A DNA stretch of 64,000 bases, taken from assembly GCF_041248615.1 (NCBI RefSeq), contig NZ_CP158425.1; one strand, 5' to 3'. The position numbers and the translations under genes are program-made. The stretch's first letter is position 1, and each line of letters begins with the position of its first letter. Below, piece after piece: positions 877 through 59,775 of the stretch. The stretch is from Escherichia coli. GTDB lineage: Bacteria > Pseudomonadota > Gammaproteobacteria > Enterobacterales > Enterobacteriaceae. Below the pieces are notes generated by a model. The model saw only the letters and a list, made by a program, of their open reading frames with translations. It was not told the origin of the DNA and did no database searches.

Positions 877-1104
877 AAGCTACCAGGTATGCACTGGTTA
901 TAACATGCTGAAAAATAAGTTATTTATCAGTGCTATGCTTAGTGCTTCTTTTACTACTGGTCTTACATCTCGGCTTAATGTGCAAAAAAGTAACTTTTCA
1001 AACGAACTCCTGACTATTCATCTGTATGCCTTTCTGGCTCAAGCGTACATGCTAGCCCATTCATTAAATGCCGTGGAGCAAGATGGTTTCGTGCGCACTC
1101 TATT

Positions 1105-1610
1105 CACGTGAATGCCTTTTGTGGATTACGCCTCTTACATTCATACAAATGCTTTTGATGTCGGTATCCCAAAAAATCATTCATTGAAATGCTTTTGTTT
1201 GCCACTGTATCCCGAGCATAGCTATGCAGTGGTATAAAAAGGCATTTTGGTGAATGGCATTAGGTCGAATGACACACAGTACAGCTTTGTTAAGAGCGAG
1301 AATGGTCCAAGACATCTATGACATTGGGCATCAGAAGGACTATGTGTTTGATATGAGATCAAAAAAATATCAGAAGCATCACAACTCCAATGGCATTCAA
1401 AGAAATGCCTTTGTTTTGTTAGTACACCAAACAACCCAAAATTCATGCAGTTATATCAAAGACTCATTCGCAAAAGGACTCAGCCAGAAAGCATTTGCTT
1501 AAATAGCATTGGCCAAAAGCATTCGAATGAATGATGTTCATATGGACAAGACAAAGTCCCACTCACGCCCAGAGGTGTAAAAGGCATTTAGATGAATGAC
1601 GCACCGGCCG
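1105..1610. repeat. Iteron-like repeat cluster downstream of repA (candidate origin/incompatibility repeats)
   Basis: At least 8 copies of a core AAATGC(C/T)TTT or AATGGCATT in both orientations, e.g. tgaatgccttttgtgg, acaaatgcttttgatg, tgaaatgcttttgtttg, aaaaggcattttggtgaatggcatt, caatggcattcaaagaaatgcctttg, aaaaggcatttagatgaatg. Confidence 0.5.
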
Positions 1611-3546: not shown

Positions 3547-4817
3547 TGATTAAAAAAAAGGGCTTAGGGTTCAACGCAATTACCGCATTGATCATGCTCA
3601 CGACTTCGAACTGCGTAATCGCTGAAGAATACCAATTGCCAGCAACAATTAATAACCCGGTTGTAATGCCAGTTGGTGCTGACGGATTTCAGAATGGAGC
3701 TGCAAAAGCCATTATTCCGGGTCAAGCTGGTTCTGAACAGTCAGGTGCACAAACAAACCTTAGTGAAGCCGGTAATGCGCAGGGACAAAAACCTACAACT
3801 GATCTCCCTACCGTGCAACTTTCCCCAGCCAGCAATGCTTCGCCTGCGGTAAGCGCTATTACTGGAGCATTATCAAATAATCCTAGTCTCCCCGGATTTG
3901 ACGCACAGACCCGCTCTGGTGCAATTGATAGCTATGGGAGACCAACAGGTACCTCTTCCCAGCAGAATGCAACCAATGCGACCGCCACGTCAAAAGCCGA
4001 TGAACTTTATGTCGAAGCTCGTAACCGATATAAAGAAGTTCAGCGTGTAAATGTGCCGCCTGGTGGGAATGTGGTACTGCCAGTTTCACGAGGACTTCAA
4101 AACAGAATATCGACCAGCTTCAAGAATGCTTCTGTCAGCACTTCTACCCCTGCTGAAGAGGCAAGCATATTTGTTAATGGTGGCGATGTCTTTATTTCAA
4201 CTAATACCGATAAACCAATCGGGATTATGTTGTCGGAAGATCAGGTACCTGAATCGACCTATAACCTGACCCTGGTACCGCTTGATGTTCCCGGTGCGAT
4301 GATTTCAGTTACTACATCTTTAAGCCCATCTATGCAAGCCAAACGTGAAACCTCATTGGATAAGCAAAACTATGAGGAAATGTTGGCCCGCTCCCAGTCA
4401 GAAGAACTGGCTCCATCGGATCCAAAACAAGACGATCATAAACAAAGAATCATTGATTTATTGACTCCTGTGGCTCTTGGTGAGGTCCCTTCAGGATTCA
4501 GTTTACAACAGGACCGACTTTCTCGTATTCCTGCGTCAGAGCAGTCCCCATGTAACTTTAATATGTATGCAAAGCTCGGTCAGAGACTGGTTGGCTCACG
4601 TGAACTTATTGATGTAATTCTTGTGAAAAACGATAAACCATACGGTCAAATCGTTGCTGATCAGCAGTGTATGGCAGAAGGCGTTATTGCAAGTGCTTTA
4701 TTTGATAAAGCATACCTGCAACCGGGAGAAGAAACAGAGCTTTACATAGTCCGGGATAAATTGTTCAAGGAACGCGAGGCCCGGGTTACAACCAGACCAA
4801 GTCTAATCAGAAAATAA
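3543..4817 (+). CDS. trhK: TraK-like (VirB9/secretin-like) protein
   Basis: 424-aa ORF with signal peptide and Ser/Thr/Gln/Ala-rich linker; start overlaps the TraE-like stop (coupling); position in operon. Confidence 0.55.
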   Translation: MMIKKKGLGFNAITALIMLTTSNCVIAEEYQLPATINNPVVMPVGADGFQNGAAKAIIPGQAGSEQSGAQTNLSEAGNAQGQKPTTDLPTVQLSPASNASPAVSAITGALSNNPSLPGFDAQTRSGAIDSYGRPTGTSSQQNATNATATSKADELYVEARNRYKEVQRVNVPPGGNVVLPVSRGLQNRISTSFKNASVSTSTPAEEASIFVNGGDVFISTNTDKPIGIMLSEDQVPESTYNLTLVPLDVPGAMISVTTSLSPSMQAKRETSLDKQNYEEMLARSQSEELAPSDPKQDDHKQRIIDLLTPVALGEVPSGFSLQQDRLSRIPASEQSPCNFNMYAKLGQRLVGSRELIDVILVKNDKPYGQIVADQQCMAEGVIASALFDKAYLQPGEETELYIVRDKLFKEREARVTTRPSLIRK

Positions 4818-12060: not shown

Positions 12061-15000
12061 CTTATTTAACCCCCTTTATCGCCAATCTGTGATTTTCTAA
12101 TGTTAGCCTACAGTTCTAGGGCCCTTGCTCCCATGATGCGAATCCTTCCACCTAATAAAGATTAACGCCTCATTCCTGTATGCCGGTCTTACGACGCCAG
12201 TGCACGGACAATTTTTGGTCATCACAAGGCCAGGCGGGAGATTTAATCAGGGCGTGGTGTTCCTTTGCAGCAGCTGCGGCACTGTAAGCCGAAGGCGGAA
12301 TTAACTCCTTTATCGCCATCTGGGGACGTCATTAGGGGTACCCCTTTTAACTTGCTCAGGACCATTAAGCTAAAATTCCGGATAGTGATTGACGTAAGAT
12401 TTAGGCTAAGCAGGTAAAGTGATCCCCGCTCCCGGGGTGACCACTTTATACAAAAGGCCGATCGGAAGATTGTCCTTAGGGAAATATTCCTTTAACACAG
12501 CACGGGCACTTACTGCCGCTGCCGGATTTAACCCCCTTAATCGCCAAACTGGGGTACTGTCCTGATGCTGGCCTTCCGTCCTGGGCAGGGTTGCTAACAC
12601 TTGCTCCCATGATACGAAATGCGCCAGCTGATACAGATTAACGTCTCATTACTCCATGCCGGTCTGCCGAAACTGGTGCATAGCTTTTTTCGATATTCGC
12701 ATGAACAGACGCTTGATTTTTTCAGGTTGTAATATACCTGAGCAGCATCTGAAGGCACTTTCAGTCGCTGTCAGATTTAACCCCCTTAATCGCCAAACTG
12801 GTGTTCTGTCCTCATGCAGGCCTTCAGTTCTGAGCTGGGTTGCTATCACTTGCTCCCATAATGCGAAATGTACCTGCTGATACAAATTAACGTCGTATTC
12901 CTGTATGCCGGTCTGCCGACACCAGTGCTCGGGCTATTTTCGGTCCTAACAAGACCTGGCGAGAGATTTAATCAGGGCGTGGTGTGACTGAGCAGCAGCT
13001 GGGGCACTGTTATCCGCTTGCAGATTTAACCCCCTTAATCGCCACACTGGGGTTCAGTCCTGATAGTGTCCTTCCGTCCTGGGCTCGGTTGCTAACACTT
13101 GCTCCCATGATACGAAATGCGCCTGCTGATACAGATTAAAGTCACATTACTGCATACCGATCTGCCGACTCCGGTGCATGGCTTTTTCCGATAATCACAA
13201 GGACGGACGGGTGATTTTATCTTTGCATAGTATGTCTGAGCAGCATCAGAAGGCTCTGTCAGCCACTGGCAGATTTAACCCCCTTAATCTCCAAACTGGG
13301 ATCAGTCCTGATAGTGTCCTTCCGTCCTGGGCAGGGTTGCTAACACTTGCTCCCATGATACGAAATGTGCCTGCTGATACAGATTAAAATCACATTACTG
13401 CATACCGGTCTGCCGACACCGGTGCATGGGCGATTTCCGACGATCTCAAGAACATATGGGAGATTATATCAGGGAGAGTAGTATGCCTGAGCAGCATCTG
13501 AAGGCACTGTCAGCCGCTGTCAGATTTAACCCCCTTAATCGCCAAACTGGTGTTCTGTCCTCATGCAGGCCTTCAGTTCTGAGCTGGGTTGCTATCACTT
13601 GCTCCCATAATGCGAAATGTACCTGCTGATACAAATTAACGTCGTATTCCTGTATGCCGGTCTGCCGACACCAGTGCTCGGGCTATTTTCGGTCCTAACA
13701 AGACCTGGCGAGAGATTTAATCAGGGCGTGGTGTGACTGAGCAGCAGCTGGGGCACTGTTATCCGCTTGCAGATTTAACCCCCTTAATCGCCACACTGGG
13801 GTTCAGTCCTGATAGTGTCCTTCCGTCCTGGGCTCGGTTGCTAACACTTGCTCCCATGATACGAAATGCGCCTGCTGATACAGATTAAAGTCACATTACT
13901 GCATACCGATCTGCCGACTCCGGTGCATGGCTTTTTCCGATAATCACAAGGACGGACGGGTGATTTTATCTTTGCATAGTATGTCTGAGCAGCATCAGAA
14001 GGCTCTGTCAGCCACTGGCAGATTTAACCCCCTTAATCTCCAAACTGGGATCAGTCCTGATAGTGTCCTTCCGTCCTGGGCAGGGTTGCTAACACTTGCT
14101 CCCATGATACGAAATGCGCCAGCTGATACAGATTAACGTCTCATTACTCCATGCCGGTCTGCCGAAACTGGTGCATAGCTTTTTTCGATATTCGCATGAA
14201 CAGACGCTTGATTTTTTCAGGTTGTAATATACCTGAGCAGCATCTGAAGGCACTTTCAGTCGCTGTCAGATTTAACCCCCTTAATCGCCAATCTGGGATT
14301 TTCTGATGTTAACCTACAGTTCAAGGCCCTTGCTCCCATGATGCGAACCTTGCAACCTGATAAAGATTTAAGCCTCATTCCTGTATGCCGGTCTTACGAC
14401 TCTAGTGCACGGGGACTATTTTCGGTCATAATAAGACCTGGCGGGAGATTTAATCAGGGCGTGGTGTGACTGAGCAGAAGCTGGGGCACTGTCAGCCGCT
14501 GGCAGATTAAAACCCTTTATTCGCCATCTCAAGACGTCATTATGGGTAGTCCTTTTAACTTTCTAAGGACCATTAAGCTTAAACTCCGTTTAGAGAATGA
14601 CGTAAGATTTAGGCTAAGCAGGTTAAGTGATCCCCGCTCCCGGGTTGAACACTTTATTCATCGTACGAGCGAAAGATTGTCCTTCGGGAAATATTTCTTA
14701 TACACCGCTCGGGCACTTACAGCCACTGGCGGATTTAACCCCCTTAATCGCCAAACTGGGGTACTGTCCTGATGCTGGCCTTCAGTTCTGGGCTGGGTGG
14801 CTATCACTTGCTCCCCTAATGCGAAATGTGTCTGTTAATACAGATTAACGTCATTTTCCTGCGTGCCGGTCTGCCGACACCAGTGCACGGCCTTTTTTCG
14901 GTCATTACATTACCGGGCAGGAGATTTTATCAGGGCGTGGTGTTACTGAGCAGGAGCTGGGGCACTATCAGCAGCTTGCATATTTAACTCCCTTAATCGC

Positions 15001-15640
15001 CAAACTGGTGTTCTGTCCTCATGCTGGCCTTCAGTTCTGGGCTGGGTTGCTATCTCTTGCTCCCATAATGCGAAATGTATCTGCTGATACAGATTAACGT
15101 CATATTCCTGTATGCCGGTCTGCCGACACCAGTGCTTGGGCTATTTTCGGTCATAACAAGACCTGGCGAGAGATTTACTCAGGGCGTGGTGTGACTGAGC
15201 AGCAGCTGGGGCACTGTCATCCGCTTGCAAATTTAACCCCCTTAATCGCCAAACTTGGGTTTTGTCCTGATGCTGGCCTTCCGTTCTGGGCGGGGTTGCT
15301 ATCACTTGCTCCCATCATGCGAAAAGTGCCTGCTGATACAGATTAACGTCATATTCCTTCATGCCGGTCTGCCGACACAAATGCACGGGCTTTTTTCGGT
15401 CCTTACAATACCGGGCAGGAGATTTAATCAGGGCGTGGTGTGACTGAGCAGCAGCTAGGACACTGTCAGCCGCTGGCAGATTTAACCCCCTTAATCGCCA
15501 CACTGGGGTTGCCTCCTGAAGTTGGGTTTCAGTTCTGGGCTAGGTTGCTAACTCTGCTCCCATAATTCGTAGTGGGCCTACTCAAGAGATTAACACCTCA
15601 TATCTTTAGACTGGACTGACGACAACGATTCACAGTTAGG
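12061..15640. repeat. Tandem array of about 14 direct repeats of ~249 bp with nested higher-order duplications
   Basis: The motif GATTTAACCCCCTTAATCGCCA(A/C)ACTGG recurs at about 12524, 12773, 13022, 13271, 13521, 13771, 14020, 14268, 14732, 14982, 15229 and 15478, with diverged copies at about 12062, 12300 and 14505. A 749-bp block is near-identical at 12650-13398 and 13399-14147, and the 12061-12600 flank is echoed at 14270-14810. Confidence 0.9.
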
Positions 15641-40164: not shown

Positions 40165-40542
40165 ATGTCATATCTTGAATATATCAATGAAGTAAAAGTG
40201 TCCGGGATAGTTATCAGTGCTGTGGAGAAAAAAATGACTGACCAGAGTATAGGTTTGTTAATAAAGCTCAAAAATAGGATGAAGACAGAAGTTGATGGTG
40301 AAATCACTGAGAGAGAATTTTCAGTTCAAATCAAGGTGTCGCCTGAAATGTATTCAACCTGTTTCACTGGTATAAATCAGGGTGATGAGTTGATGGTCTC
40401 CGGTTATATTGTTGTCGATACTATTATGATTGAAGGGAGAGAACATCCTCTTGACTACATGAGAGTGGTAGCAACAAGTAAGTTGGCTCACATACCTAAA
40501 CCTCTAAAAGGTTTTGGACAAAGTAGCTTTAATCAGATCTGA
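40165..40542 (+). CDS. Hypothetical small protein; possible OB-fold ssDNA-binding protein (weak)
   Basis: 125 aa; alternating beta-strand pattern reminiscent of SSB/PriB; no firm motif. Confidence 0.3.
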   Translation: MSYLEYINEVKVSGIVISAVEKKMTDQSIGLLIKLKNRMKTEVDGEITEREFSVQIKVSPEMYSTCFTGINQGDELMVSGYIVVDTIMIEGREHPLDYMRVVATSKLAHIPKPLKGFGQSSFNQI

Positions 40543-40562
40543 CATTAAACCCACCCTAAAGG

Positions 40563-40593
40563 GGAGAAATCCCTTCATGGGATTTCTCCTTTT
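40563..40593 (+). terminator. GC-clamped hairpin plus T-run 10 nt upstream of the next start codon
   Basis: GGAGAAATCCC ttcat GGGATTTCTCC then TTTT. Confidence 0.5.
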
Positions 40594-40602
40594 GGAGTCC
40601 CC

Positions 40603-41580
40603 ATGAAACAAAAATTTAGGGCTACTGCAATAAGTAGTAATCAACTTAGTTTTTTTTCTATACTCGATATAGATGAAGATGAAATAACGCAAATAGTTGA
40701 TTCACCCAAAGAGCATTTAAATGATGCTTACACGTCCGGATTAAACTTTAAATCAGAAGAAAGTAACATTTCTGAGATAAATTATGATTCTGAAAGGCGT
40801 GAAAATCACCTTTATGAAAAATCCAAATTACTTAAAAATCAGATTTTGCATACAATTAATTTTGCAGCAGAAACAGATTATCTATATACGGTTGAAGAAT
40901 ATAACCCAGATTTGGGTGGTCTGGTAATAGAATGGACCCCTGAGGATGTGTATGTTGTTTTTCTATCCGCTATGGAAGAGTCTTTGGAAATCATTAAAGA
41001 ACTAGTGTTGAGGAGAAAGTTATTCTTCAAAGATGACAATGGTAATATCACAGTGAATCCACTTTTAGAAGCTGAAACACGGTGGTATATGTCAAAATCA
41101 TTTGAATACACTTGTTTATCTCATGGACTTGATGCATGTGAATTTAGAGCGGAATTAAAATCATGGCTCTATTATCATTCGCATCGTTCGATTAGTGAAA
41201 ACACGAAATTAGCTGAATGCAGGAATGATGATGAAATCATTTTGCATGATTGCAATGACGATATGGGCTGGGACATCTTCTTTGATCAGGATTATTTAAT
41301 GTCAGAAAAAAAACTGGCTGTTAAATGGACTGACAGGGAAATTATGGATGTTTACATAAAAGCTTTTAAATCCACATTAGAGTTGTTTGACGAGCTTGTT
41401 TCATGTGATCTGTTAACTAAACGAAACGCTTTTGGCAAGTTAGAAATCAATCCAATATTCGAAAATCATTTTGAATGGATCATGTCTGAAGCTTTTGAAA
41501 TAGTGGGAAATCATCTTGGTTATAATGTGCCTCAAATCAGGAAACTGATGGCAACTATTTGCCAAATGAATCTCAAATAA
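40603..41580 (+). CDS. Hypothetical protein
   Basis: 325-aa ORF with SD-like GGAG upstream; no recognisable motif. Confidence 0.4.
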   Translation: MKQKFRATAISSNQLSFFSILDIDEDEITQIVDSPKEHLNDAYTSGLNFKSEESNISEINYDSERRENHLYEKSKLLKNQILHTINFAAETDYLYTVEEYNPDLGGLVIEWTPEDVYVVFLSAMEESLEIIKELVLRRKLFFKDDNGNITVNPLLEAETRWYMSKSFEYTCLSHGLDACEFRAELKSWLYYHSHRSISENTKLAECRNDDEIILHDCNDDMGWDIFFDQDYLMSEKKLAVKWTDREIMDVYIKAFKSTLELFDELVSCDLLTKRNAFGKLEINPIFENHFEWIMSEAFEIVGNHLGYNVPQIRKLMATICQMNLK

Positions 41581-41637
41581 AATGCCACTGGCAAACATCT
41601 GCCAGAGGGCGGTGTTTGCATTTTACCGGAGTTAAAA

Positions 41638-42696
41638 ATGTCTAATGCCGCTATGAAGTTAAATGAAACATCTTCTGATGCTTATGAAAAATTAGAAGCT
41701 CTTCTTTCCCCGGATGTTATAAAGTTAAAACATTATGTGGATAAAGGTGAGTATCTTTTAGTTCTAGCAAAGGACCTTTTTGGTATTCCAGAAATGGATC
41801 CAAAGATGGCTGTGCCTGTTTTCAAAACTAAAACCTCGTATCGAGCTCCGCTGAACAAAGACTACATACCAAATCCCCGAATACTTGAACAAGTGGTTAA
41901 ACTGCTTATCAGTCCGGATATAGATTTAAGTGTGTGTCTTAAAGGTGAGTCCGGTTCTGGCAAGACTGAAATGGTAATGTACATTAGCCACATGATGAAT
42001 TGGCCGCTGACAATTAAGCAGATCAACAGCAATATTCGAGTTGATGAGCTTGAAGGTGAGCGCAGTCTTAATGGTGGTAATACAGGTTTTGTACACAGCG
42101 ATTTGGTAACGGGATTTCGTAATGGTCACCTCATTCTTCTGGATGAAGTGGACAAAATCGATCCTGATACGGCAGCAAAACTTCACATGCCCATTGAACG
42201 TAAGCCCTGGTCACTCAGTGCTAATGGTGGTGAGGTTATAACTGCTAATGGCTACACGCGATTTATTGGTACTGCAAACACAAACATGAGTGGAGGCGCT
42301 CGCCGGTTCGTTTCTTCTCAACGTCAAGATGCAGCTTTTATAAAGCGGTTCTTGATAGTTGAAATGGAGAAGCCCGACAAAGTTGCTTTAACCAATGTGC
42401 TTACTAAACGATATAGCTCTTTGCCTTTTCAGGTCATTGAGAAGTTCGTAAGAGTAGCGATTGCAGTAAATGACTCTGGTACAGAAGACAGTGTGATGGA
42501 TATTCGTCAATTAGTAGCTTGGGTTGGCACGTCGATGACGTTAAAAACCTTTAGTCTTCTTGACACTTTCAAAATAGCTTTTGCTTCTGCTTTACCTTTA
42601 CATGTGGTCGATCTTGTTCTTCAAGCTATAGATCTTTCTCTTGGCGAAGACAAGGATAAATCGCTGGAGTATTTCACAGCAAAAAAGTCGAGTTAG
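41638..42696 (+). CDS. AAA+ ATPase of the MoxR/CobS-like class
   Basis: 352 aa; Walker A (GESGSGKT), Walker B (ILLDEVD), downstream arginine-rich segment; size typical of MoxR/CobS. Confidence 0.7.
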   Translation: MSNAAMKLNETSSDAYEKLEALLSPDVIKLKHYVDKGEYLLVLAKDLFGIPEMDPKMAVPVFKTKTSYRAPLNKDYIPNPRILEQVVKLLISPDIDLSVCLKGESGSGKTEMVMYISHMMNWPLTIKQINSNIRVDELEGERSLNGGNTGFVHSDLVTGFRNGHLILLDEVDKIDPDTAAKLHMPIERKPWSLSANGGEVITANGYTRFIGTANTNMSGGARRFVSSQRQDAAFIKRFLIVEMEKPDKVALTNVLTKRYSSLPFQVIEKFVRVAIAVNDSGTEDSVMDIRQLVAWVGTSMTLKTFSLLDTFKIAFASALPLHVVDLVLQAIDLSLGEDKDKSLEYFTAKKSS

Positions 42697-43031
42697 ATGG
42701 GATTTGTTATGAAACCTCTGATATTTGTATCTCAGAGTTATCCCATCTTGAATTTAGTGCGTTTTTAAGTACGGATGGTGCTGCTACCATTGCTATAGCA
42801 AAAAACGGAACTAATTTTACTGGACTTATGCAACTGAATAACGACTATTCTTTATTGTTTTATCATGATGGTAAAATAAATATGGAAGGTCTGATTAAAC
42901 AAATGGAATTAAAAGGTTATATGTATCAGGGAGCAATGGGCAATGATGATGTTGTTGCTGAGTTTCCCGGTATTCTTTTAATTTCACCAGAGAAGCTTTA
43001 ATATCAACCCTATCGGGAAATCTTTCCCGTT

Positions 43032-43054
43032 GGGGAGGGTTTCCCCTTTTTTTT
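43032..43054 (+). terminator. Hairpin plus T8 element upstream of the 43065 gene
   Basis: GGGGA ggg TTTCCCC then 8 T, preceded by the perfect palindrome CGGGAAA tc TTTCCCG (43014-43029). Confidence 0.45.
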
Positions 43055-43064
43055 GGAGAAACCC

Positions 43065-44192
43065 ATGACTTTAAATACTTCAATGCTTAACAAAGTATCT
43101 GCAAAACAAATCTCTGAGAATTTTGCAAAATCATATCCAGATTTACTGGAAGGTGCAGTTATAACAAAAATTGAAATAAGTGGCTGTCAAGGATCGCGTC
43201 GAACCGATAAAATCGATTTGTCTTATGATGGAGATGATATTACGGATCAAAAAAGCGTATCTAAAAGCGAAGTACGCTGGATTGACATAAAAGCCCTTAG
43301 CTTCAAAAGTACGATTACCAGCAGAATATCAACTCTTTGCTCACGCTTGTGCATCCGCTATAGCAATATGTGGATTTTACCAGTATCCAGTATGGAAGAG
43401 TTTCTGGAAGGGGCCCAAGAGATTGAACGAGAGTTTCAGGCAGGTATTCAAAACGTTGTAGACAATTATGAGATGCATATTGAGGCTGAAAAAAATAGAA
43501 GCCCAAGAATGTCTTCTTTGATTGATCAGTTGAAATTAACTAAAGATGATTTCATAAAATCCTTTAGATTTAATATTGCTCACTTTATTCCTTTTACGCC
43601 TATTAGCGTTGAAGGTGATGAAACCCAGGACTACTATCAGGAACAATTGATAACAGATCTGGCAGAAGAAGCAATGAAGGTTTATGAAAAAATTAGCAAA
43701 AATAACAATTTGCGCTCAAGTACTATTGACCGACTGAAGCAAATGCAAAATAAGATCATTAGCTTCATGTTTATACATAAAGAGGCGGCAGTACTTGCAG
43801 AAGCTATAAAACACATAATGAATAATTTACCTAAAGGTGCCATTTCTGAACCTCGCGACGTTGCGGTGTTACAGCAGTGGTTTTATTTCATGAGTGATGC
43901 TTCAATGTTAAAGCGTATTATTTCAGGAGAGCAAAAGGTTACTGACTGGTTGGAATCTATTACCAGATCATTTAATCAAAGCTCACAAACAGAACCGAAC
44001 GCGCTACAGAACACAGGTATTGAAGCTATTTTAGATTCAACAAATGTGTTCCAGGTTGAACCTGTCGTAGAGAACGATATAAATAACAGCACGTTTTCAA
44101 ACACTGATCCTGTAGCTGAACCTGAGAAATCAGTTTCGCAACAGGAAGACAATGTTGAAAATTGTTTTGATATCGAGCTCAAAGGCTGGTAA
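43065..44192 (+). CDS. Hypothetical protein (ORF-track start 43053 is TTG; ATG at 43065 preferred)
   Basis: About 375-aa ORF between the AAA+ and vWA genes; RBS GGAGAAA. Confidence 0.4.
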   Translation: MTLNTSMLNKVSAKQISENFAKSYPDLLEGAVITKIEISGCQGSRRTDKIDLSYDGDDITDQKSVSKSEVRWIDIKALSFKSTITSRISTLCSRLCIRYSNMWILPVSSMEEFLEGAQEIEREFQAGIQNVVDNYEMHIEAEKNRSPRMSSLIDQLKLTKDDFIKSFRFNIAHFIPFTPISVEGDETQDYYQEQLITDLAEEAMKVYEKISKNNNLRSSTIDRLKQMQNKIISFMFIHKEAAVLAEAIKHIMNNLPKGAISEPRDVAVLQQWFYFMSDASMLKRIISGEQKVTDWLESITRSFNQSSQTEPNALQNTGIEAILDSTNVFQVEPVVENDINNSTFSNTDPVAEPEKSVSQQEDNVENCFDIELKGW

Positions 44193-44219
44193 CTGTTTGC
44201 TTTATTAAAAACCCCAGAT

Positions 44220-44254
44220 GGGTACTTCACCATCTGGGTGAGTACCCCTTTTTT
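44220..44254 (+). terminator. Hairpin plus T-run with an overlapping alternative stem
   Basis: GGGTACT/AGTACCC stem followed by T6; interdigitated with CCAGATGG/CCATCTGG (44214-44221, 44230-44237). Confidence 0.5.
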
Positions 44255-44269
44255 ATAAAGAGGTATTCT

Positions 44270-46288
44270 ATGAAATTAGATCTTAAATCATCACCGCGCC
44301 ATATTAAGCGTTTACAGAATATAGCAAAAGTCATTAGCGGCTTAGGCGATGTAAGAGTTGTAATAGACGACAATACCAAAGGACCGTATTTTGATCCTGT
44401 AAATAAAGTTTGTGTTTTACCAAACGGCGATTATAGCGATGATGACTTTGTCAGTCTGATTGAAGGTTTTACCTGTCATGAAGCTGGTCATGGTCGCTAT
44501 ACCGACAGCGAGGTTTACAGTGACGCCTTTAATAGTGTTCTCAAGTCATCTGAAGGGTTTACACGCTTCGATGACGGAATGAATGCAGAGTTTGAGAGCC
44601 TCGCTGAGAAACGTAAAGCTTATAGCAGGGCAAAACGTCTTACCGGGCTTATAAATCTGTTCGATGATGTACAGATGGAAGAGAAGGTTGGTAACGATTA
44701 TCCGGATGCAAAGCGGCGGCTTGCAGCCACTTACGCACTGATGGTTAAAGCCGGAAGGATGACTCCTGATATATCTTCTCGTCCGGAAAATCCTGTCCTA
44801 TTTATTGAGTGGTATCTGCTTAACTCATTGCGAGTAAAAGTCCTTCAGCAGGCAGGTCACAAAGAAACACTCGATCCGTTTTTTGACTATGCCCAAAAGA
44901 TACTTTCTCCAGTAATTTCTGATGTTGAGGAAATTTTTCATGATGCTCTTGGTTGTGAAAATACTCAGGGCTGTGAATCCCTTGCTCGTAAGACCCTGGC
45001 TCTTTTAGAGAGACTGCGGGATGAGGCAAGGGAACAACAGCAGCAGACAGAGCAGGAGGAGCAGGAGGCATATGATGAATCCGAGACCGAGACCGATACC
45101 GATACCGATACCGAATCAGAAGATAAATCGCTTGAGTCGACTGATAGTCGTGAGGATGATTCTGAGGACGATAGTGAAGGTCAGGCAGATACTTCCGATA
45201 ACTCTGATCTTGCTCAAGAGGGATGTTCTGAGCCTTCAGAACTTGCTGAAGATAACGAGGGAAATAATGAACCCACCGGTGGCAATCCCACAGGTGATAA
45301 CATTATTGAAGACGATACTGATGCGATTAACCCTTCCGAGAGTGAATCAGATGAAGCCAGTTCGACTAACGTTGAAGATGAAAGTAACTTTTCATCGGCT
45401 CAATGGGAGATACTGGCAGATTTGTTGGATGCCTTTCTTGGCAGTGATGAGGATAGCGAAGATTATCACGATGCTTTGGCTAAAGAGATTGAAGGTATTG
45501 CATCAAAAGTATCCGATGACGTGAAAGCCGAATTCGGTGCTTCTGAATGGGATATCCCTGATCTCCTTATCGATTTGAATGTTTACAATGAGGCTTTGTC
45601 TCTGAGTCATTCAATCGGTAGCGACTTGTCTGTTTTACAGCAGGTTAAAATGCGTGGCCGAAACAAAACTCATGAGCGTGGAATTACCTTCGATGGAAAT
45701 CGATTAATTCTGTCACCAATGGGAGTTCGTGATGTCTTCAGAGCTCAAAGCGAATCTAAAAATAGAGGGCATGTTGGCCTCGTATTAGTTCGTGATATTT
45801 CAGCGTCAATGGCTAATGATGAAAGATATATTCATGCCATTAAGTCAGATCTTGCTTTATCGATGGCCGCTGAAAGTTTGTCAAAAATGCATGTCTCCAA
45901 TATAGTCTTTCCCTTCAAGGAAAGTGAATTTGAGATTATCAAAACGTTTGATCAAAGCGTTGAGGAATCTCTATCGAAATTCACTCTTGGATGTAAGGGT
46001 TATTATACCCCTACGGGATCGGCTTTAATGGCAGCTGTTGATCTGTTACTTGACAGCCAATTCGATAGGAAAATAATTTTTCTTATAACTGATGGTTATC
46101 CGAATAAATCGGAATTTACTATCGGCGAAGTTATGGAAAAGGCTAAATGTAATGGAATAGAAATCGTTGGTGTTGGTATTAAGACTGATGAAATAATTGG
46201 TTTTGAAACGGACACTTTCGTAACAGTTGATGATACTTCTTTATTGTCTATTGAAGTCAGTAAGCTAGTTCATCAAATACTTTCTTAA
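44270..46288 (+). CDS. vWA-domain protein with long acidic low-complexity linker (CobT-like partner of the AAA+ ATPase)
   Basis: 672 aa; C-terminal MIDAS-like DxSxS (VRDISASM) and later TDG motif (LITDGYPN); central Asp/Glu/Ser/Thr-rich region of about 130 aa. Confidence 0.65.
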   Translation: MKLDLKSSPRHIKRLQNIAKVISGLGDVRVVIDDNTKGPYFDPVNKVCVLPNGDYSDDDFVSLIEGFTCHEAGHGRYTDSEVYSDAFNSVLKSSEGFTRFDDGMNAEFESLAEKRKAYSRAKRLTGLINLFDDVQMEEKVGNDYPDAKRRLAATYALMVKAGRMTPDISSRPENPVLFIEWYLLNSLRVKVLQQAGHKETLDPFFDYAQKILSPVISDVEEIFHDALGCENTQGCESLARKTLALLERLRDEAREQQQQTEQEEQEAYDESETETDTDTDTESEDKSLESTDSREDDSEDDSEGQADTSDNSDLAQEGCSEPSELAEDNEGNNEPTGGNPTGDNIIEDDTDAINPSESESDEASSTNVEDESNFSSAQWEILADLLDAFLGSDEDSEDYHDALAKEIEGIASKVSDDVKAEFGASEWDIPDLLIDLNVYNEALSLSHSIGSDLSVLQQVKMRGRNKTHERGITFDGNRLILSPMGVRDVFRAQSESKNRGHVGLVLVRDISASMANDERYIHAIKSDLALSMAAESLSKMHVSNIVFPFKESEFEIIKTFDQSVEESLSKFTLGCKGYYTPTGSALMAAVDLLLDSQFDRKIIFLITDGYPNKSEFTIGEVMEKAKCNGIEIVGVGIKTDEIIGFETDTFVTVDDTSLLSIEVSKLVHQILS

Positions 46289-46303
46289 TAAACTCTACCC
46301 AAT

Positions 46304-46332
46304 CGGGGCAAAAGGCCCCGGTGGGTCTTTTT
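46304..46332 (+). terminator. Hairpin plus T-run after the vWA gene
   Basis: CGGGGC aaaag GCCCCG with outer ACCCA/TGGGT arms, then CTTTTT. Confidence 0.5.
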
Positions 46333-46359
46333 GCTCCATGAAGGAATAAGGAGCAAAAT

Positions 46360-46581
46360 ATGACTCAGATAAAAACTTACCGTGTAGAACATGAAAAAGT
46401 CGGTGCGATGCATAAAGTCCGTATTTTCGGACGTGTTGGTGAAGTTATAAGCAATGATAGCCCTCAGGAAAGAATCTTCCGCGAAGTCACTATAGCGGAG
46501 GGTAATAGCCAGCAGGCTGCGTTACTTGTAGATAACTACATACAGCGTCTTGAGAATAATGGCTTCACGACTGAAGCATAA
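46360..46581 (+). CDS. Small hypothetical protein
   Basis: 73 aa with good SD (AAGGAG) 7 nt upstream; bracketed by hairpins. Confidence 0.35.
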   Translation: MTQIKTYRVEHEKVGAMHKVRIFGRVGEVISNDSPQERIFREVTIAEGNSQQAALLVDNYIQRLENNGFTTEA

Positions 46582-46586
46582 ATGTT

Positions 46587-46610
46587 GAGGGCCCCCGGGC
46601 CCTCTTTCTT
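46587..46610 (+). terminator. Hairpin plus T-rich tail after the small gene
   Basis: GAGGGCCC cc GGGCCCTC then TTTCTT. Confidence 0.5.
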
Positions 46611-46694
46611 AAATTCTGCGTTGTGGGTTTCTCCCTGTCTTCTGCACCGCAGAAGGCATTGAGAAACTCACAATGCCAGATAAGAGAGATCATC

Positions 46695-47927
46695 ATGACT
46701 TATGCATCCCCGGCTCTTCGTCGTAATCCACAGGAAGTATCTGAACACTTTATTAAACTCGTTCATGCTCGAATTGCTGAAGTGTCTGGCTGGAAGTATA
46801 TATTCGAAAGAATACCTGCTTTCAAAGACGCTTGTGCAAAAGCCCCGAGCCAGGTTCCTTGCCCGTTTACTGGCGCAGGGAAATCGAAGTTTCGTTTCCG
46901 ACAAAAAGACCTTTATACCGGATGTGCGATCCATAATGACTTTCCGGTAAATGAGTTTTGCGACGGAATTGATGTTCTGGCGAAATATTATGAATTAAGT
47001 AAAACGCAGACTTGCAAAAAGATTCTCTCAGATTTTTTCGGGATGGATCTGCATGCTCCGTTAACTGACGCCGACATTGAAAATGAACGACGCTATAAAT
47101 CAGCAGTTCGTGCCACAGAAACTCTTGACCGAGAGGAAGTGGCAAAGCGAATGCGAAAACTTGATGTGATGTATCACTATACCGGTGAAATCAAGCCTAA
47201 TACTCCTGTTGCTTTGTACCTCCGTAATCGTGGGATCTCCCGCTTACTGAGTCACTTACCAAAGGATTTAGGCTTTAATAACCGGATCTACTATTGGGAT
47301 AAAGATAAGCAGAAATCGATTATCTATCCGGGAATGATTGCGATCTATCGTGACACCCGAGGTCGGCCTCTGACTATTCATAGAACATACGTAGACAAAA
47401 ATGGTGATAAGGCACCTGTAGAAAATCCAAAGCTGATGATGAAGCCTCCTGCCGATATGACAGGTGGCTCAATTCAGTTGTTTGACCCTCACTATGATTC
47501 AGGTAGTTCGACCTGGACACTGGGAGTGGCTGAAGGGATCGAGAACGCGCTTTCTGTTGTAGAAGCGACTTCAACACCATGCTGGGCAGCCAGCTCCGCA
47601 TGGTGCCTTGAAAACGTTACTGTTCCTGATTTTTTACTGCCTCCGCCGGATGTAAAATCTATAAACTTTTATATCTGGGCGGATAAGGATATTGCTAACT
47701 CACAAGGCACTCGTGCCGGTATTGAAGCTGCTCAGCGACTTCAAAGCCGCATGGTTGAGTTTTTGGCTAAACGATATCCCGCATCAAAGCTGACAATTGA
47801 AGTCTTCGAACCAGCACAAGATATTCCTGATGGGAAAAAGGGTATCGACTGGAACGATGTTCTCCAGTTAACAGGGCAGGATGGATTCCCGATTCACTGG
47901 GCTCCTGAATGTCTTAATCAGCTGTAA
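46695..47927 (+). CDS. DNA primase-like protein (zinc-binding N-terminus plus Toprim-like C-terminal domain); ORF track extends to 46623
   Basis: CxxGxGKxKFRF-type zinc-binding motif (CPFTGAGKSKFRFRQKD...CAIH), recalled as similar to P4-alpha/TraC-type primases; acidic Toprim-like segment (YIWADKD...GTRAGIEAAQRL); RBS AGAGAG before ATG 46695. Confidence 0.55.
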   Translation: MTYASPALRRNPQEVSEHFIKLVHARIAEVSGWKYIFERIPAFKDACAKAPSQVPCPFTGAGKSKFRFRQKDLYTGCAIHNDFPVNEFCDGIDVLAKYYELSKTQTCKKILSDFFGMDLHAPLTDADIENERRYKSAVRATETLDREEVAKRMRKLDVMYHYTGEIKPNTPVALYLRNRGISRLLSHLPKDLGFNNRIYYWDKDKQKSIIYPGMIAIYRDTRGRPLTIHRTYVDKNGDKAPVENPKLMMKPPADMTGGSIQLFDPHYDSGSSTWTLGVAEGIENALSVVEATSTPCWAASSAWCLENVTVPDFLLPPPDVKSINFYIWADKDIANSQGTRAGIEAAQRLQSRMVEFLAKRYPASKLTIEVFEPAQDIPDGKKGIDWNDVLQLTGQDGFPIHWAPECLNQL

Positions 47928-58584: not shown

Positions 58585-59775
58585 CTATTCATCAAAGGCA
58601 TTTCGCATAAGCTTGATCATTGCTTTTTTACCAGCTTCAATATTACGAATGTAGCGCATAACCATTTCTTCATTCGACCAGTTCCCCATTTCCATAATCT
58701 GTGGTAGCGAGTAACCTTCAATATTTAGCTGTATCGCTCCGCCTACACGAACGCTGTGCCCTGTCCAGTAACGAGTTTTAGTCTCATTTGGATAAAGCTC
58801 ATTCCACATCTCTTTAAATGCTCGTAAAAGGGAATTTTTGCTGAGCATACCGGCATCGTCCACAGTGTCTTCTTCATCTTCATCTTCATCGTTCAGAAGA
58901 CTTTGCTTAGCACGATAGGGTAGGTTATGCCTTTTAAGAAGTTCAGATAGCTCATTCCCCTTACTCCGAAGCTTCCAGCCGGGTGGCATATAGCCTGTAT
59001 CATGGAAATTTACGGCCTGGAAAAGGAATTCATCCGGATGACTGTGCTGATCCATTTTCACGAGGTTCATCAATCTCAAGAGGCAGTTAGTTAACTGACG
59101 TGTCAGCCGGTAGGTAAGAAGTGTACTAATGTTCGTTTTTGTACGGTATACCGTCAGGTTAAATTCACCGGTCATACTATCCAGAGACAGATCTTTCAGA
59201 CGTATACGTCGAATTTCGGATGAACGGAGCAGTGTTTCAAAGCCTGTCCAGATCAGGCACAGGTCACGAAGTTTACGAACTGAGTTTGTAGTACTGCGTA
59301 ACTTTATCAGAGCCTTGAGATCGCCAATAAGAAAGGGAGTTGCCTGTTTAGTCGTCTTTCGCTTCCGGGCTTCCGATTGTTTTAAGGCTTCCAGCATGTA
59401 CCATGCTTCAGACGTAATAATCCCGGGCAGGTTAAGCCCTTTTTTATGGATACTATTTAAGGCCTGAAGACAGCTGTTTATGCTGCTTCGTGACAATTTG
59501 CCTTCAAGATGCCCCATAAACGCAAGCAGAGCGTCCTCAGACACGGGGAGCGAACTTACTGGCCAGTCTGTATGCAACCGGGCATTCGCCAGATACCATT
59601 CGTTCCATACTCGTAGCCAGTGCAGATAGGTTTTAGCAGTGTTGTATCTCAGATGGGAAAAGTAACGGATCAAGCGTGAAAGCTGTTTATCATGGTTGCC
59701 GAACGTTTCCAGCTGCTGATGCAATTCGCTTTCCGAAAACTGTCTGATCACTGATTGATTCTTCATCCTGCTCAC
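58585..59775 (-). CDS. Tyrosine site-specific recombinase (integrase/resolvase family)
   Basis: 396 aa; C-terminal catalytic pattern (HSVRVGGA... nucleophile Tyr in MVMRYIRNI); SAM-like N-terminal domain; GCGCCC gtga GGGCGC hairpin at its 3' end (58570-58585). Confidence 0.75.
   Translation of the reverse strand: MSRMKNQSVIRQFSESELHQQLETFGNHDKQLSRLIRYFSHLRYNTAKTYLHWLRVWNEWYLANARLHTDWPVSSLPVSEDALLAFMGHLEGKLSRSSINSCLQALNSIHKKGLNLPGIITSEAWYMLEALKQSEARKRKTTKQATPFLIGDLKALIKLRSTTNSVRKLRDLCLIWTGFETLLRSSEIRRIRLKDLSLDSMTGEFNLTVYRTKTNISTLLTYRLTRQLTNCLLRLMNLVKMDQHSHPDEFLFQAVNFHDTGYMPPGWKLRSKGNELSELLKRHNLPYRAKQSLLNDEDEDEEDTVDDAGMLSKNSLLRAFKEMWNELYPNETKTRYWTGHSVRVGGAIQLNIEGYSLPQIMEMGNWSNEEMVMRYIRNIEAGKKAMIKLMRNAFDE

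Follow-up and report, generated by a model that had tools for sequence, protein, structure and literature searches.

What role is played by a strongly acidic, low-complexity stretch with an embedded hexanucleotide microsatellite in a plasmid gene, and does variation in the repeat matter to the encoded protein? The stretch in question (45035-45440) lies in frame within the open reading frame of a 672-aa protein and encodes aa 256-391. The window, meaning the whole 64-kb stretch of DNA that was analysed, is an exact match to the IncHI2 plasmid pM160133_p1, and both NZ_CP022165.1 and many IncHI2 plasmids carry an identical gene. A literature search on DUF3150, on IncHI2 with VWA and on R27 with von Willebrand found nothing about this gene. 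The 136 residues comprise 26 E, 22 D, 19 S and 12 T, so that 58% are D/E/S/T as compared with 30% in the remainder of the protein; with only one K and one R the net charge is -46, and the original prediction of about 130 residues dominated by these four amino acids is borne out. Two other open frames at this position, one in the +2 frame (45021-45524) and one on the minus strand (44820-45071), were dismissed as unsupported, open frames being expected of low-complexity coding DNA. The features of the locus are collected in Table 1.

Table 1. Coordinates in the window of the acidic segment, its gene and the neighbouring genes, with the basis for each assignment.
Feature	Position	Strand	Basis
CobS-like MoxR-type AAA+ ATPase gene, 352 aa	41638..42696	+	Pfam AAA_5, 98 bits; phrog_249
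DUF3150 gene, between the AAA+ and CobT-like genes	43065..44192	+	Pfam DUF3150, 83 bits
Predicted CobT-like adaptor gene	44270..46288	+	ORF, 672 aa; WP_000762697.1, annotated merely as 'VWA domain-containing protein'
N-terminal domain, M48-like zincin fold (aa 1-253)	44270..45028	+	Predicted fold
HEAGH (HExxH) motif (aa 70-74)	44477..44491	+	Conserved in homologues
Q/E-rich tail of the last N-domain helix (aa 254-273)	45029..45088	+	AF2 helix 232-273, pLDDT falling
9-bp repeat GAGCAGGAG x2.1	45050-45068	+	TRF; inside the Q/E-rich helix tail
Hexanucleotide microsatellite, five exact CCGA(G/T)A units and a partial sixth	45081..45114	+	TRF
Intrinsically disordered acidic linker proper (aa 274-372), net charge -36	45089..45385	+	pLDDT <50, charge-hydropathy, low conservation
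Helical extension before the VWA domain (aa 376-463)	45395..45658	+	AF2 helices
VWA/MIDAS domain (aa ~499-672)	45764..46285	+	Pfam VWA
MIDAS motif DxSxS (D509/S511/S513, with T580 and D608)	45794-45808	+	Homologue alignment
DUF7146 + Toprim_3 (primase-like) gene, directly downstream	46695..47927	+	Pfam; phrog_510 DNA primase

By profile comparison and structure modelling, the protein is a CobT-type adaptor composed of an M48-like N-domain, a linker, a helical extension and a MIDAS VWA domain. The relationship to CobT is significant at the profile level only: a 56-sequence family profile retrieved cobaltochelatase CobT (9uka_G) as its best match in the PDB (E=4.8e-34, in three stretches) and aligned weakly to midasin region 4261-4565, and phmmer searches of the PDB with the single sequences of the 672-aa protein and of the intermediate family member P0096 gave no CobT match. 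Intermediate members P0085, P0096 and P0122 pass the Pfam CobT model PF06213; the 672-aa protein itself passes neither the Pfam CobT/CobT_C nor the NCBIfam cut-offs, and the N-domain searched alone against Pfam, with E allowed to reach 10, matched no family. Assignment as a cobaltochelatase CobT proper was rejected, given the lack of a PF06213 match and a TIGR02442 score of 33.8 bits against a cut-off of 779. Foldseek placed the NorD VWA domain (NorQD complexes) and the Rea1/MDN1 MIDAS domain as the best matches of the C-terminal part; as full-length matches were mostly to VWA domains, the N-domain was modelled separately. Among phages, only weak VWA-domain matches to the 'CobT' of Vibrio phage ICP2 were obtained.

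Both motifs are well preserved. In 56 diverse homologues the five MIDAS residues are invariant, as is E71 of the HEAGH motif, with H70 and H74 conserved in at least 90%, and 117 of the 125 family representatives have an HExxH sequence. The extension ahead of the VWA domain is modelled as five helices (376-391, 399-412, 416-422, 436-453 and 455-463). Family-profile positions 381-495 align with CobT 348-461, and the extension is probably the counterpart of the CobT 'shaft'.

The neighbourhood consists of conjugation genes and hypothetical genes. CobN and B12 genes are absent from the window, in which just three ORFs reach 700 aa, one TraC-like, one Ig-like/unknown and one TraN-like. The AAA_5 ATPase scores weakly against the CobS model TIGR01650 (34 bits, cut-off 558), and on the basis of synteny and the CobST precedent it is presumed to be the motor partner of the VWA protein. 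The pairing of an AAA_5 gene with a CobT-like gene recurs with the Shewanella homologues, and at two Shewanella loci (L010 and L011) the DUF3150 gene holds the same position and the Toprim gene is syntenic. PADLOC, whose library covers defence systems and not anti-defence, assigned none of the VWA, DUF3150 and Toprim proteins or neighbouring genes to a defence system; for the ATPase it returned two marginal matches only, DolB and IetA (E=2e-4, 18.6 bits). This uncharacterised module of CobS-like, DUF3150, CobT-like and Toprim genes is carried on more than 1,100 sequenced plasmids.

On the structural model, the limits 45035-45440 need a small correction, as the truly disordered part is predicted to be aa 274-372 (45089-45385). 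The stretch opens, at aa 256-273, with what is predicted to be the tail of a long N-domain helix, where a conserved (K/R)E(K/Q)QQ edge is seen among homologues, and it closes with a conserved helix of the C-terminal part, aa 376-391 (QWEILADLLDAFLG). Between these, AlphaFold predicts no ordered fold: pLDDT is ~28-32 without secondary structure over aa 274-372, as against 80-94 in both flanking domains, low confidence being a proxy for disorder and not a measurement of it. A charge-hydropathy plot likewise classes the acidic segment as disordered. Linker identity to homologues is 0.27, compared with 0.60 and 0.64 in the flanking domains, and the linker alignment contains ~31 gap columns.

Composition tells a different story from sequence. 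Among 125 family representatives selected at 50% identity, linker length ranges from 0 to 311 aa (median 112), and the median fractions are 0.25 for D+E, 0.04 for K+R and 0.06 for hydrophobic residues. Net charge is negative in 124 of these linkers and positive in one. Many linkers carry tandem repeats of their own, expanded independently in other lineages; some lineages have Q-rich linkers with just 19-24% D/E, and the homologue comparison found no conserved acidic motif within the linker. Linker composition is conserved across the family and sequence is not. The flexible acidic spacer that had been proposed from the DNA alone is thus supported by the predicted disorder, by the retention of composition while identity is lost and by the precedent of the CobT linker.

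We consider it probable that the acidic segment serves as a flexible polyanionic tether of a CobT-type adaptor and that the repeat polymorphism within it is close to neutral. If CobS-CobT, NorQ-NorD and Rea1/Mdn1 are taken as models, the gene 1.6 kb upstream would supply a hexameric MoxR-type AAA+ ring; the N-domain would attach to its side, and the C-terminal part would plug the ring and present its MIDAS site to a target. With the two halves bound at separate points of the ring and mobile with respect to one another, the linker of ~100 residues would need only to be extended, soluble and flexible; selection would therefore keep its composition, abundant in D/E/S/T and nearly devoid of K/R and hydrophobic residues, while leaving sequence and precise length free. 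Where sequence is so weakly constrained, short codon repeats may arise and change by replication slippage.

Well-studied adaptors provide close precedents. In CobT, the adaptor between the CobS ring and CobN, a disordered linker of ~90 aa joins an M48C-like N-domain to a shaft with a VWA domain; the linker is invisible in cryo-EM, and no linker contact was reported in the CobST structures (10.64898/2026.07.21.739949). CobT (PDB 9uka; PF06213 + PF11775) and the plasmid protein share this three-part plan, a similar size (637 and 672 aa), linkers of ~90-120 aa rich in D/E/S, as is also seen for CobT's own linker in the profile alignment to 9uka_G, and a gene position near a CobS-type AAA_5 ATPase. 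However, the two are only ~20% identical, the HExxH motif that is intact in the plasmid protein has been lost by CobT (DSMAL in the solved protein), and CobT is a subunit of a B12 enzyme whereas the plasmid gene belongs to a conjugative-plasmid module with DUF3150 and Toprim proteins.

The same plan of an N-domain, a disordered linker and a ring-plugging MIDAS VWA domain is found in NorD/NorQ, CbbO/CbbQ, ViaA/RavA and CoxE/CoxD, and has been described for NorD (PMC9976466). The N-domains of NorD and like adaptors are unrelated to that of the 672-aa protein, however, and their targets are respiratory or metabolic enzymes. In Rea1/Midasin (Mdn1) a long unstructured segment, likewise rich in Asp/Glu, tethers the MIDAS domain to the AAA+ ring, although this is a eukaryotic single-chain giant that works in ribosome biogenesis and has a far longer linker. 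In the adaptor subunit BchD/ChlD of the AAA+ magnesium chelatase a low-complexity region, which is also acidic, lies ahead of the VWA domain, but the N-domain is AAA+-like instead of M48-like and the linker is proline-rich. The unstructured linker preceding the Mdn1 MIDAS domain has been described as an entropic spring (PMC8837202), and the proline-rich region of BchD/ChlD precedes a C-terminal integrin-I/VWA domain (PMC7689651). An acidic tether with a changeable repeat is the usual behaviour of such linkers and the finding is an ordinary one: what is conspicuous in the DNA reads as the normal disordered tether of a CobT/MoxR-VWA-type adaptor.

The acidity itself may have a function in addition to tethering. 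The linker could act as a pseudo-ligand for the protein's own MIDAS or bind basic surfaces of the AAA+ ring, thereby gating the adaptor (auto-inhibiting or pre-positioning it) until displaced by ATP or the target. MIDAS metal coordination is completed by an acidic residue of the ligand (PMC9976466), the MIDAS residues are invariant in this family, and CobT also has acidic segments ahead of its MIDAS/VWA domain. The strictness with which negative charge is kept, despite free drift of the sequence, hints at an electrostatic role beyond simple tethering. Against this, the linker lacks a conserved acidic motif, the Q-rich lineages have less D/E, and in the CobST structures the linker is unobserved and such a contact is not reported (10.64898/2026.07.21.739949). 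We regard a specific function of the acidity as unlikely.

A broader proposal starts from the intact HExxH motif and its downstream Glu, and from the position of the gene in a conserved conjugative-element module. The plasmid family would comprise active metalloproteases, driven by the AAA+ ring and targeted by the MIDAS site, and the module might act on a host or plasmid DNA-processing target during establishment; the linker would be an entropic spring or a pseudo-ligand/decoy, and its repeats would tune the machine. We hold this to be quite improbable, though the CobT architecture together with the retained zinc-peptidase motif suggests concrete mutants and partners to test.

Within the preferred reading of a tether, the microsatellite requires its own account. 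TRF reports period 6, 5.7 copies, 96% matches and a score of 54. Direct reading gives five exact units at 45081-45110; of the six hexamers originally proposed, the sixth (45111-45116, CCGAAT) departs from the consensus, and the encoded peptide ETETDTDTDT (aa 272-281, codons 45083-45112) is as stated. The tract is the longest period-6 self-match in the window (17 exact positions), compared with a mean of 8.1 and a maximum of 12 in 200 Markov-1 simulations of the window. Because none of 2000 codon shuffles of the linker attained this run (maximum 14), the repeat exceeds what acidic codon composition alone would produce.

The predicted in-frame slipped-strand variation is real, and repeat number is not identical among related plasmids. 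A 551-bp stretch also occurs in related IncHI2 plasmids as 545- and 539-bp versions, and the 6- and 12-bp indels map exactly onto the hexamer tract. At least six in-frame protein alleles with 2-5 (E/D)T units were found: ETETDTDTDT, ETETETETDT, ETETETDT, ETDTDTDT, ETDTDT and ETDT. The first four occur in proteins that otherwise differ by no more than one amino acid, and slippage is therefore not only real but fast. In evenly spaced samples out of ~1,120 plasmids, which indicate frequencies and are no exact census, the 551-, 545- and 539-bp forms accounted for 4, 25 and 17 of 48 full-length plasmid rows and for 6, 51 and 3 of 60 complete E. coli genomes, the 539-bp form being rare in E. coli, whereas plasmids of Enterobacter and Salmonella often have it. 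Length differences among the sampled alleles are always multiples of 6 bp, the genes are still annotated as intact, and allele distribution tracks SNP-defined plasmid sublineages. As a separate observation, one IncHI2 plasmid carries IS903B inserted within the acidic segment.

Such behaviour resembles that of contingency loci, in which slippage in an intragenic short tandem repeat changes unit number much faster than point mutation. The tract could accordingly be imagined as a tuning knob, with fast and reversible unit changes setting tether length and adapting the machine to hosts or conditions; it mutates far faster than the remaining gene, allele frequencies differ among collections, and other family lineages have expanded repeats independently. 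But with a unit of six bases every change preserves the frame and no frameshift or on/off switching results, and the range is small: 2-5 dipeptides amount to a change of at most six residues in a segment of ~100-124, in a family that tolerates 0-311 aa. Alleles also follow the SNP-defined sublineages, as inheritance predicts and host-driven switching does not. Classification as a phase-variable contingency locus was rejected, since with a 6-bp unit the genes keep their frame and their annotation as intact and nothing points to phenotype switching, and an adaptive tuning role is very unlikely. The GA(G/T)ACC tract would instead be a young microsatellite of slippage origin, in which two residues at a time are gained or lost in frame; these changes are most likely close to neutral and simply mark plasmid sublineages. 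We infer neutrality from the small size of the tract (4-10 of ~124 residues) and from the coexistence of the alleles in successful plasmids. For IncHI2 plasmids, major vehicles of multidrug resistance, the hexamer tract could offer an inexpensive means of telling sublineages apart.

Conjugative plasmids encode acidic anti-restriction proteins, and characterised DNA mimics such as Ocr and ArdA are rigid, spaced charge arrays. The further suggestion that the segment mimics DNA, as a decoy for host restriction enzymes or nucleoid proteins at plasmid entry, could draw on its very high charge density and on DNA-related plasmid neighbours such as the Toprim/primase-like gene, but is unsupported and hardly credible: the segment is predicted to be unstructured where Ocr and ArdA have a folded scaffold, it is an internal linker joining two folded domains, CobT has a like linker in the B12 pathway where DNA mimicry has no role, the PADLOC defence models (not anti-defence) gave no match, and in one IncHI2 plasmid the segment is the site of IS903B.

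The acidic, repeat-bearing linker examined here joins an M48-like zincin N-domain (aa 1-253) to a C-terminal part that contains a VWA domain with a complete MIDAS motif, whose residues D509, S511, S513, T580 and D608 are invariant across 56 diverse homologues. The top structural matches of this C-terminal part are the VWA domain of NorD, from NorQ-NorD complexes, and the MIDAS domain of Rea1/MDN1. A profile search with the N-domain recovered 1,510 cluster representatives at E<=0.001, several of which pass the Pfam models CobT (PF06213) and CobT_C. The best PDB hit of the 56-sequence family profile is the solved cobaltochelatase subunit CobT (9uka_G, E 4.8e-34), in an alignment spanning the N-domain, the pre-VWA helices and the VWA domain. 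CobT is comprised of an M48C-like N-domain, a linker and a C-domain of 'shaft' plus VWA/MIDAS, and acts as an adaptor joining the CobS AAA+ ring to CobN; its linker, about 90 residues long, is disordered and cannot be seen in any of the maps (2026 preprint, 10.64898/2026.07.21.739949). The HMMER alignment with 9uka_G places a D/E/S-rich linker in CobT itself, and a gene for a CobS-like AAA_5 ATPase lies 1.6 kb upstream of the CobT-like gene within the window. Profile match, architecture and upstream ATPase together identify the window protein, on sequence grounds, as a CobT-type adaptor. Cobaltochelatase CobT proper is ruled out, as the protein fails curated models, and the window contains no CobN. 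Within this known protein architecture the linker is ordinary; what is new is its recognition in this plasmid gene.

Features of the CobT-like gene, its module and other parts of the window (window coordinates unless a locus is named)
Feature	Coordinates	Strand	Remarks
CobT-like gene	44270..46288	+	672 aa; sole annotation 'VWA domain-containing protein'
HExxH motif (HEAGH)	44477-44491		aa 70-74
Conserved downstream Glu	44678-44680		E137
Acidic interval	45035-45440	+	aa 256-391
Period-6 array	45081-45114	+	TRF, 5.7 copies
Codons of the array	45083-45112		encode ETETDTDTDT
IS903B insertion in a related plasmid	equivalent to ~45365		NZ_AP022511.1 (L006), locus 1404-1405
Conserved module	40165-47927		compared loci L010, 3576-11397, and L011, 1166-8987; gene-order comparison
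Linker-spanning segment of CP042616.1	L005, locus 1001-1540		540 bp
Second short hexamer repeat	58871-58895		TCTTCA x4.0; TRF score 41
Tandem array	12504-15594		period 249 bp, 12.6 copies; TRF score 2579

The original prediction of an acidic linker with a hexamer repeat was confirmed by composition, by TRF, and by simulations and shuffles. The interval contains 26 E, 22 D, 19 S and 12 T (58% D/E/S/T, against 30% in the rest of the protein) with one K and one R, giving a net charge of -46; its first residues (aa 256-273) finish a long helix of the N-domain, and its last (aa 376-391) form a conserved helix belonging to the C-terminal part. The array is real, but the six repeats first counted are a slight overcount: direct reading gives five units matching CCGA(G/T)A exactly, and a deviating sixth, CCGAAT. 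This tract is the longest period-6 run within the 64-kb window, and no run as long arose in 200 Markov simulations of the window or in 2000 codon shuffles of the linker. The proposed role as a flexible acidic spacer is supported by predicted disorder, charge-hydropathy and low linker identity. In an AlphaFold2 model based on 22 homologues, pLDDT is 80-94 for aa 20-260 and most of 376-672, and 28-32 for aa 274-372, where no secondary structure is predicted. By charge and hydropathy the linker segment falls well inside the disordered region, with both flanking domains on the folded side of the boundary. Homologues share an identity of 0.27 with the linker, across which about 31 alignment columns are gapped, compared to 0.60 and 0.64 for the essentially gap-free N- and C-domains.

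Slipped-strand variation in frame was likewise borne out among relatives. The 551-bp linker-spanning stretch is matched in plasmids and E. coli genomes by segments of 551, 545 or 539 bp, and when seven plasmids are aligned, gaps of 6 and 12 bp fall precisely within the hexamer tract. Evenly spaced samples from ranked hits gave these forms at 4/25/17 among 48 full-length plasmid rows and 6/51/3 among 60 E. coli rows, and every sampled length is in frame with the sole exception of CP042616.1. Six protein-level alleles were found: ETETDTDTDT (window), ETETETETDT, ETETETDT, ETDTDTDT, ETDTDT and ETDT, the last carried by a 91%-identical relative. Since the first four occur on backgrounds with at most one other residue different from the window protein, the tract evolves much faster than the remaining gene. 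Judging from the alleles, it changes via gain or loss of GAGACC or GATACC units, of either kind. The tract is absent in homologues at most 68% identical (Photorhabdus and other Salmonella/Enterobacter elements), which makes this a young microsatellite. In CP042616.1, where the gene is unannotated, the base in excess of 539 bp lies at the 5' edge of the aligned block, distant from the tract, and may reflect a coordinate offset, a real 1-bp insertion or frameshift, or an assembly error.

Family linkers, taken as the segment between N- and C-domain matches in 125 full-length representatives, have a median length of 112 aa (range 0-311) and median fractions of 0.25 D+E, 0.04 K+R and 0.06 hydrophobic residues. 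Many contain tandem repeats of their own (DDNQSGDS, SESGESSEDK, QQQDGQQQDS, SDSDDANGSDDSEGDS), with copy number varying between close relatives. These comparisons indicate that linker composition is under selection, and neither sequence nor length, and that these linkers usually evolve as repeats expand and contract. In another family lineage, the linkers of homologues P0045, P0047-P0049 and P0069 (43-54% identity) are made of QQQD(G/S/D) repeats and range from 73 to 158 aa among close relatives, a far larger change than in the window.

We infer ring docking, a tether role and neutrality of the polymorphism, and the best-supported reading of the linker is a flexible polyanionic tether. It would free the N-domain and the shaft/VWA part to occupy different AAA+ ring sites and would permit their relative movement. 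CobST and NorQD provide the models for such binding at separate ring sites and for the relative motion of the two parts. A comparable unstructured linker in Mdn1 has been modeled as an entropic spring (PMC8837202). Gaining or losing 2-6 of about 100 disordered residues would hardly alter reach, so the hexamer polymorphism is most probably near-neutral. The near-universal negative charge of family linkers, of which one in 125 is net-positive, hints at a specific electrostatic role, for example as a MIDAS pseudo-ligand or in ATPase contacts. Adaptive tuning through repeat number is unlikely, since slippage is unable to turn the gene on or off and a far wider range of linker lengths is tolerated in the family. 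Slippage and spacer thus stand from the original interpretation, but its suggestion of DNA mimicry is improbable given that a metabolic enzyme subunit has the same linker type.

More interesting than the linker itself are two by-products, a retained HExxH motif and an uncharacterized module. The motif is intact in the N-domain. Among the 56 diverse homologues E71 never varies, and conservation of H70, H74 and E137 is 90% or higher; HExxH is found in 117 of the 125 family representatives. Solved CobT, in contrast, has DSMAL at the position of HEAGH. Retention of the motif and the Glu suggests that the plasmid family may be an active zinc peptidase, with true CobT a pseudo-peptidase.

The window matches bases 1-64000 of IncHI2 plasmid pM160133_p1 (NZ_CP022165.1) with identical coordinates. 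About 1,120 plasmids in PLSDB carry the gene, most of them conjugative IncHI2 plasmids from Escherichia, Salmonella and Enterobacter, and among 5,426 complete E. coli genomes it occurs in 273. The module runs in the order 125-aa ORF, ORF, AAA_5, small ORF, DUF3150, CobT-like VWA and DUF7146/Toprim_3, and this order is also kept in Shewanella contigs. As it is kept although the IncHI2 and Shewanella CobT-like proteins are only about 24-27% identical, the linker is part of a conserved mobile-element module. PADLOC defense models gave no match to the module, bar two marginal ATPase hits, and a literature search found no paper on the CobT-like gene or its module. IS903B lies within the linker-coding region in one IncHI2 plasmid of Enterobacter hormaechei (NZ_AP022511.1), where ...GCCAGTTCGA is followed directly by the IS end GGCTTTGTTGAATAAATC; since the insertion disrupts the gene, an intact copy is dispensable for maintenance of that plasmid. 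Elsewhere in the window, a TraC-family gene and a ParA-family gene flank the large non-coding array of 249-bp period, in which no ORF reaches 100 aa and which may serve as a repeat region for partition or incompatibility.
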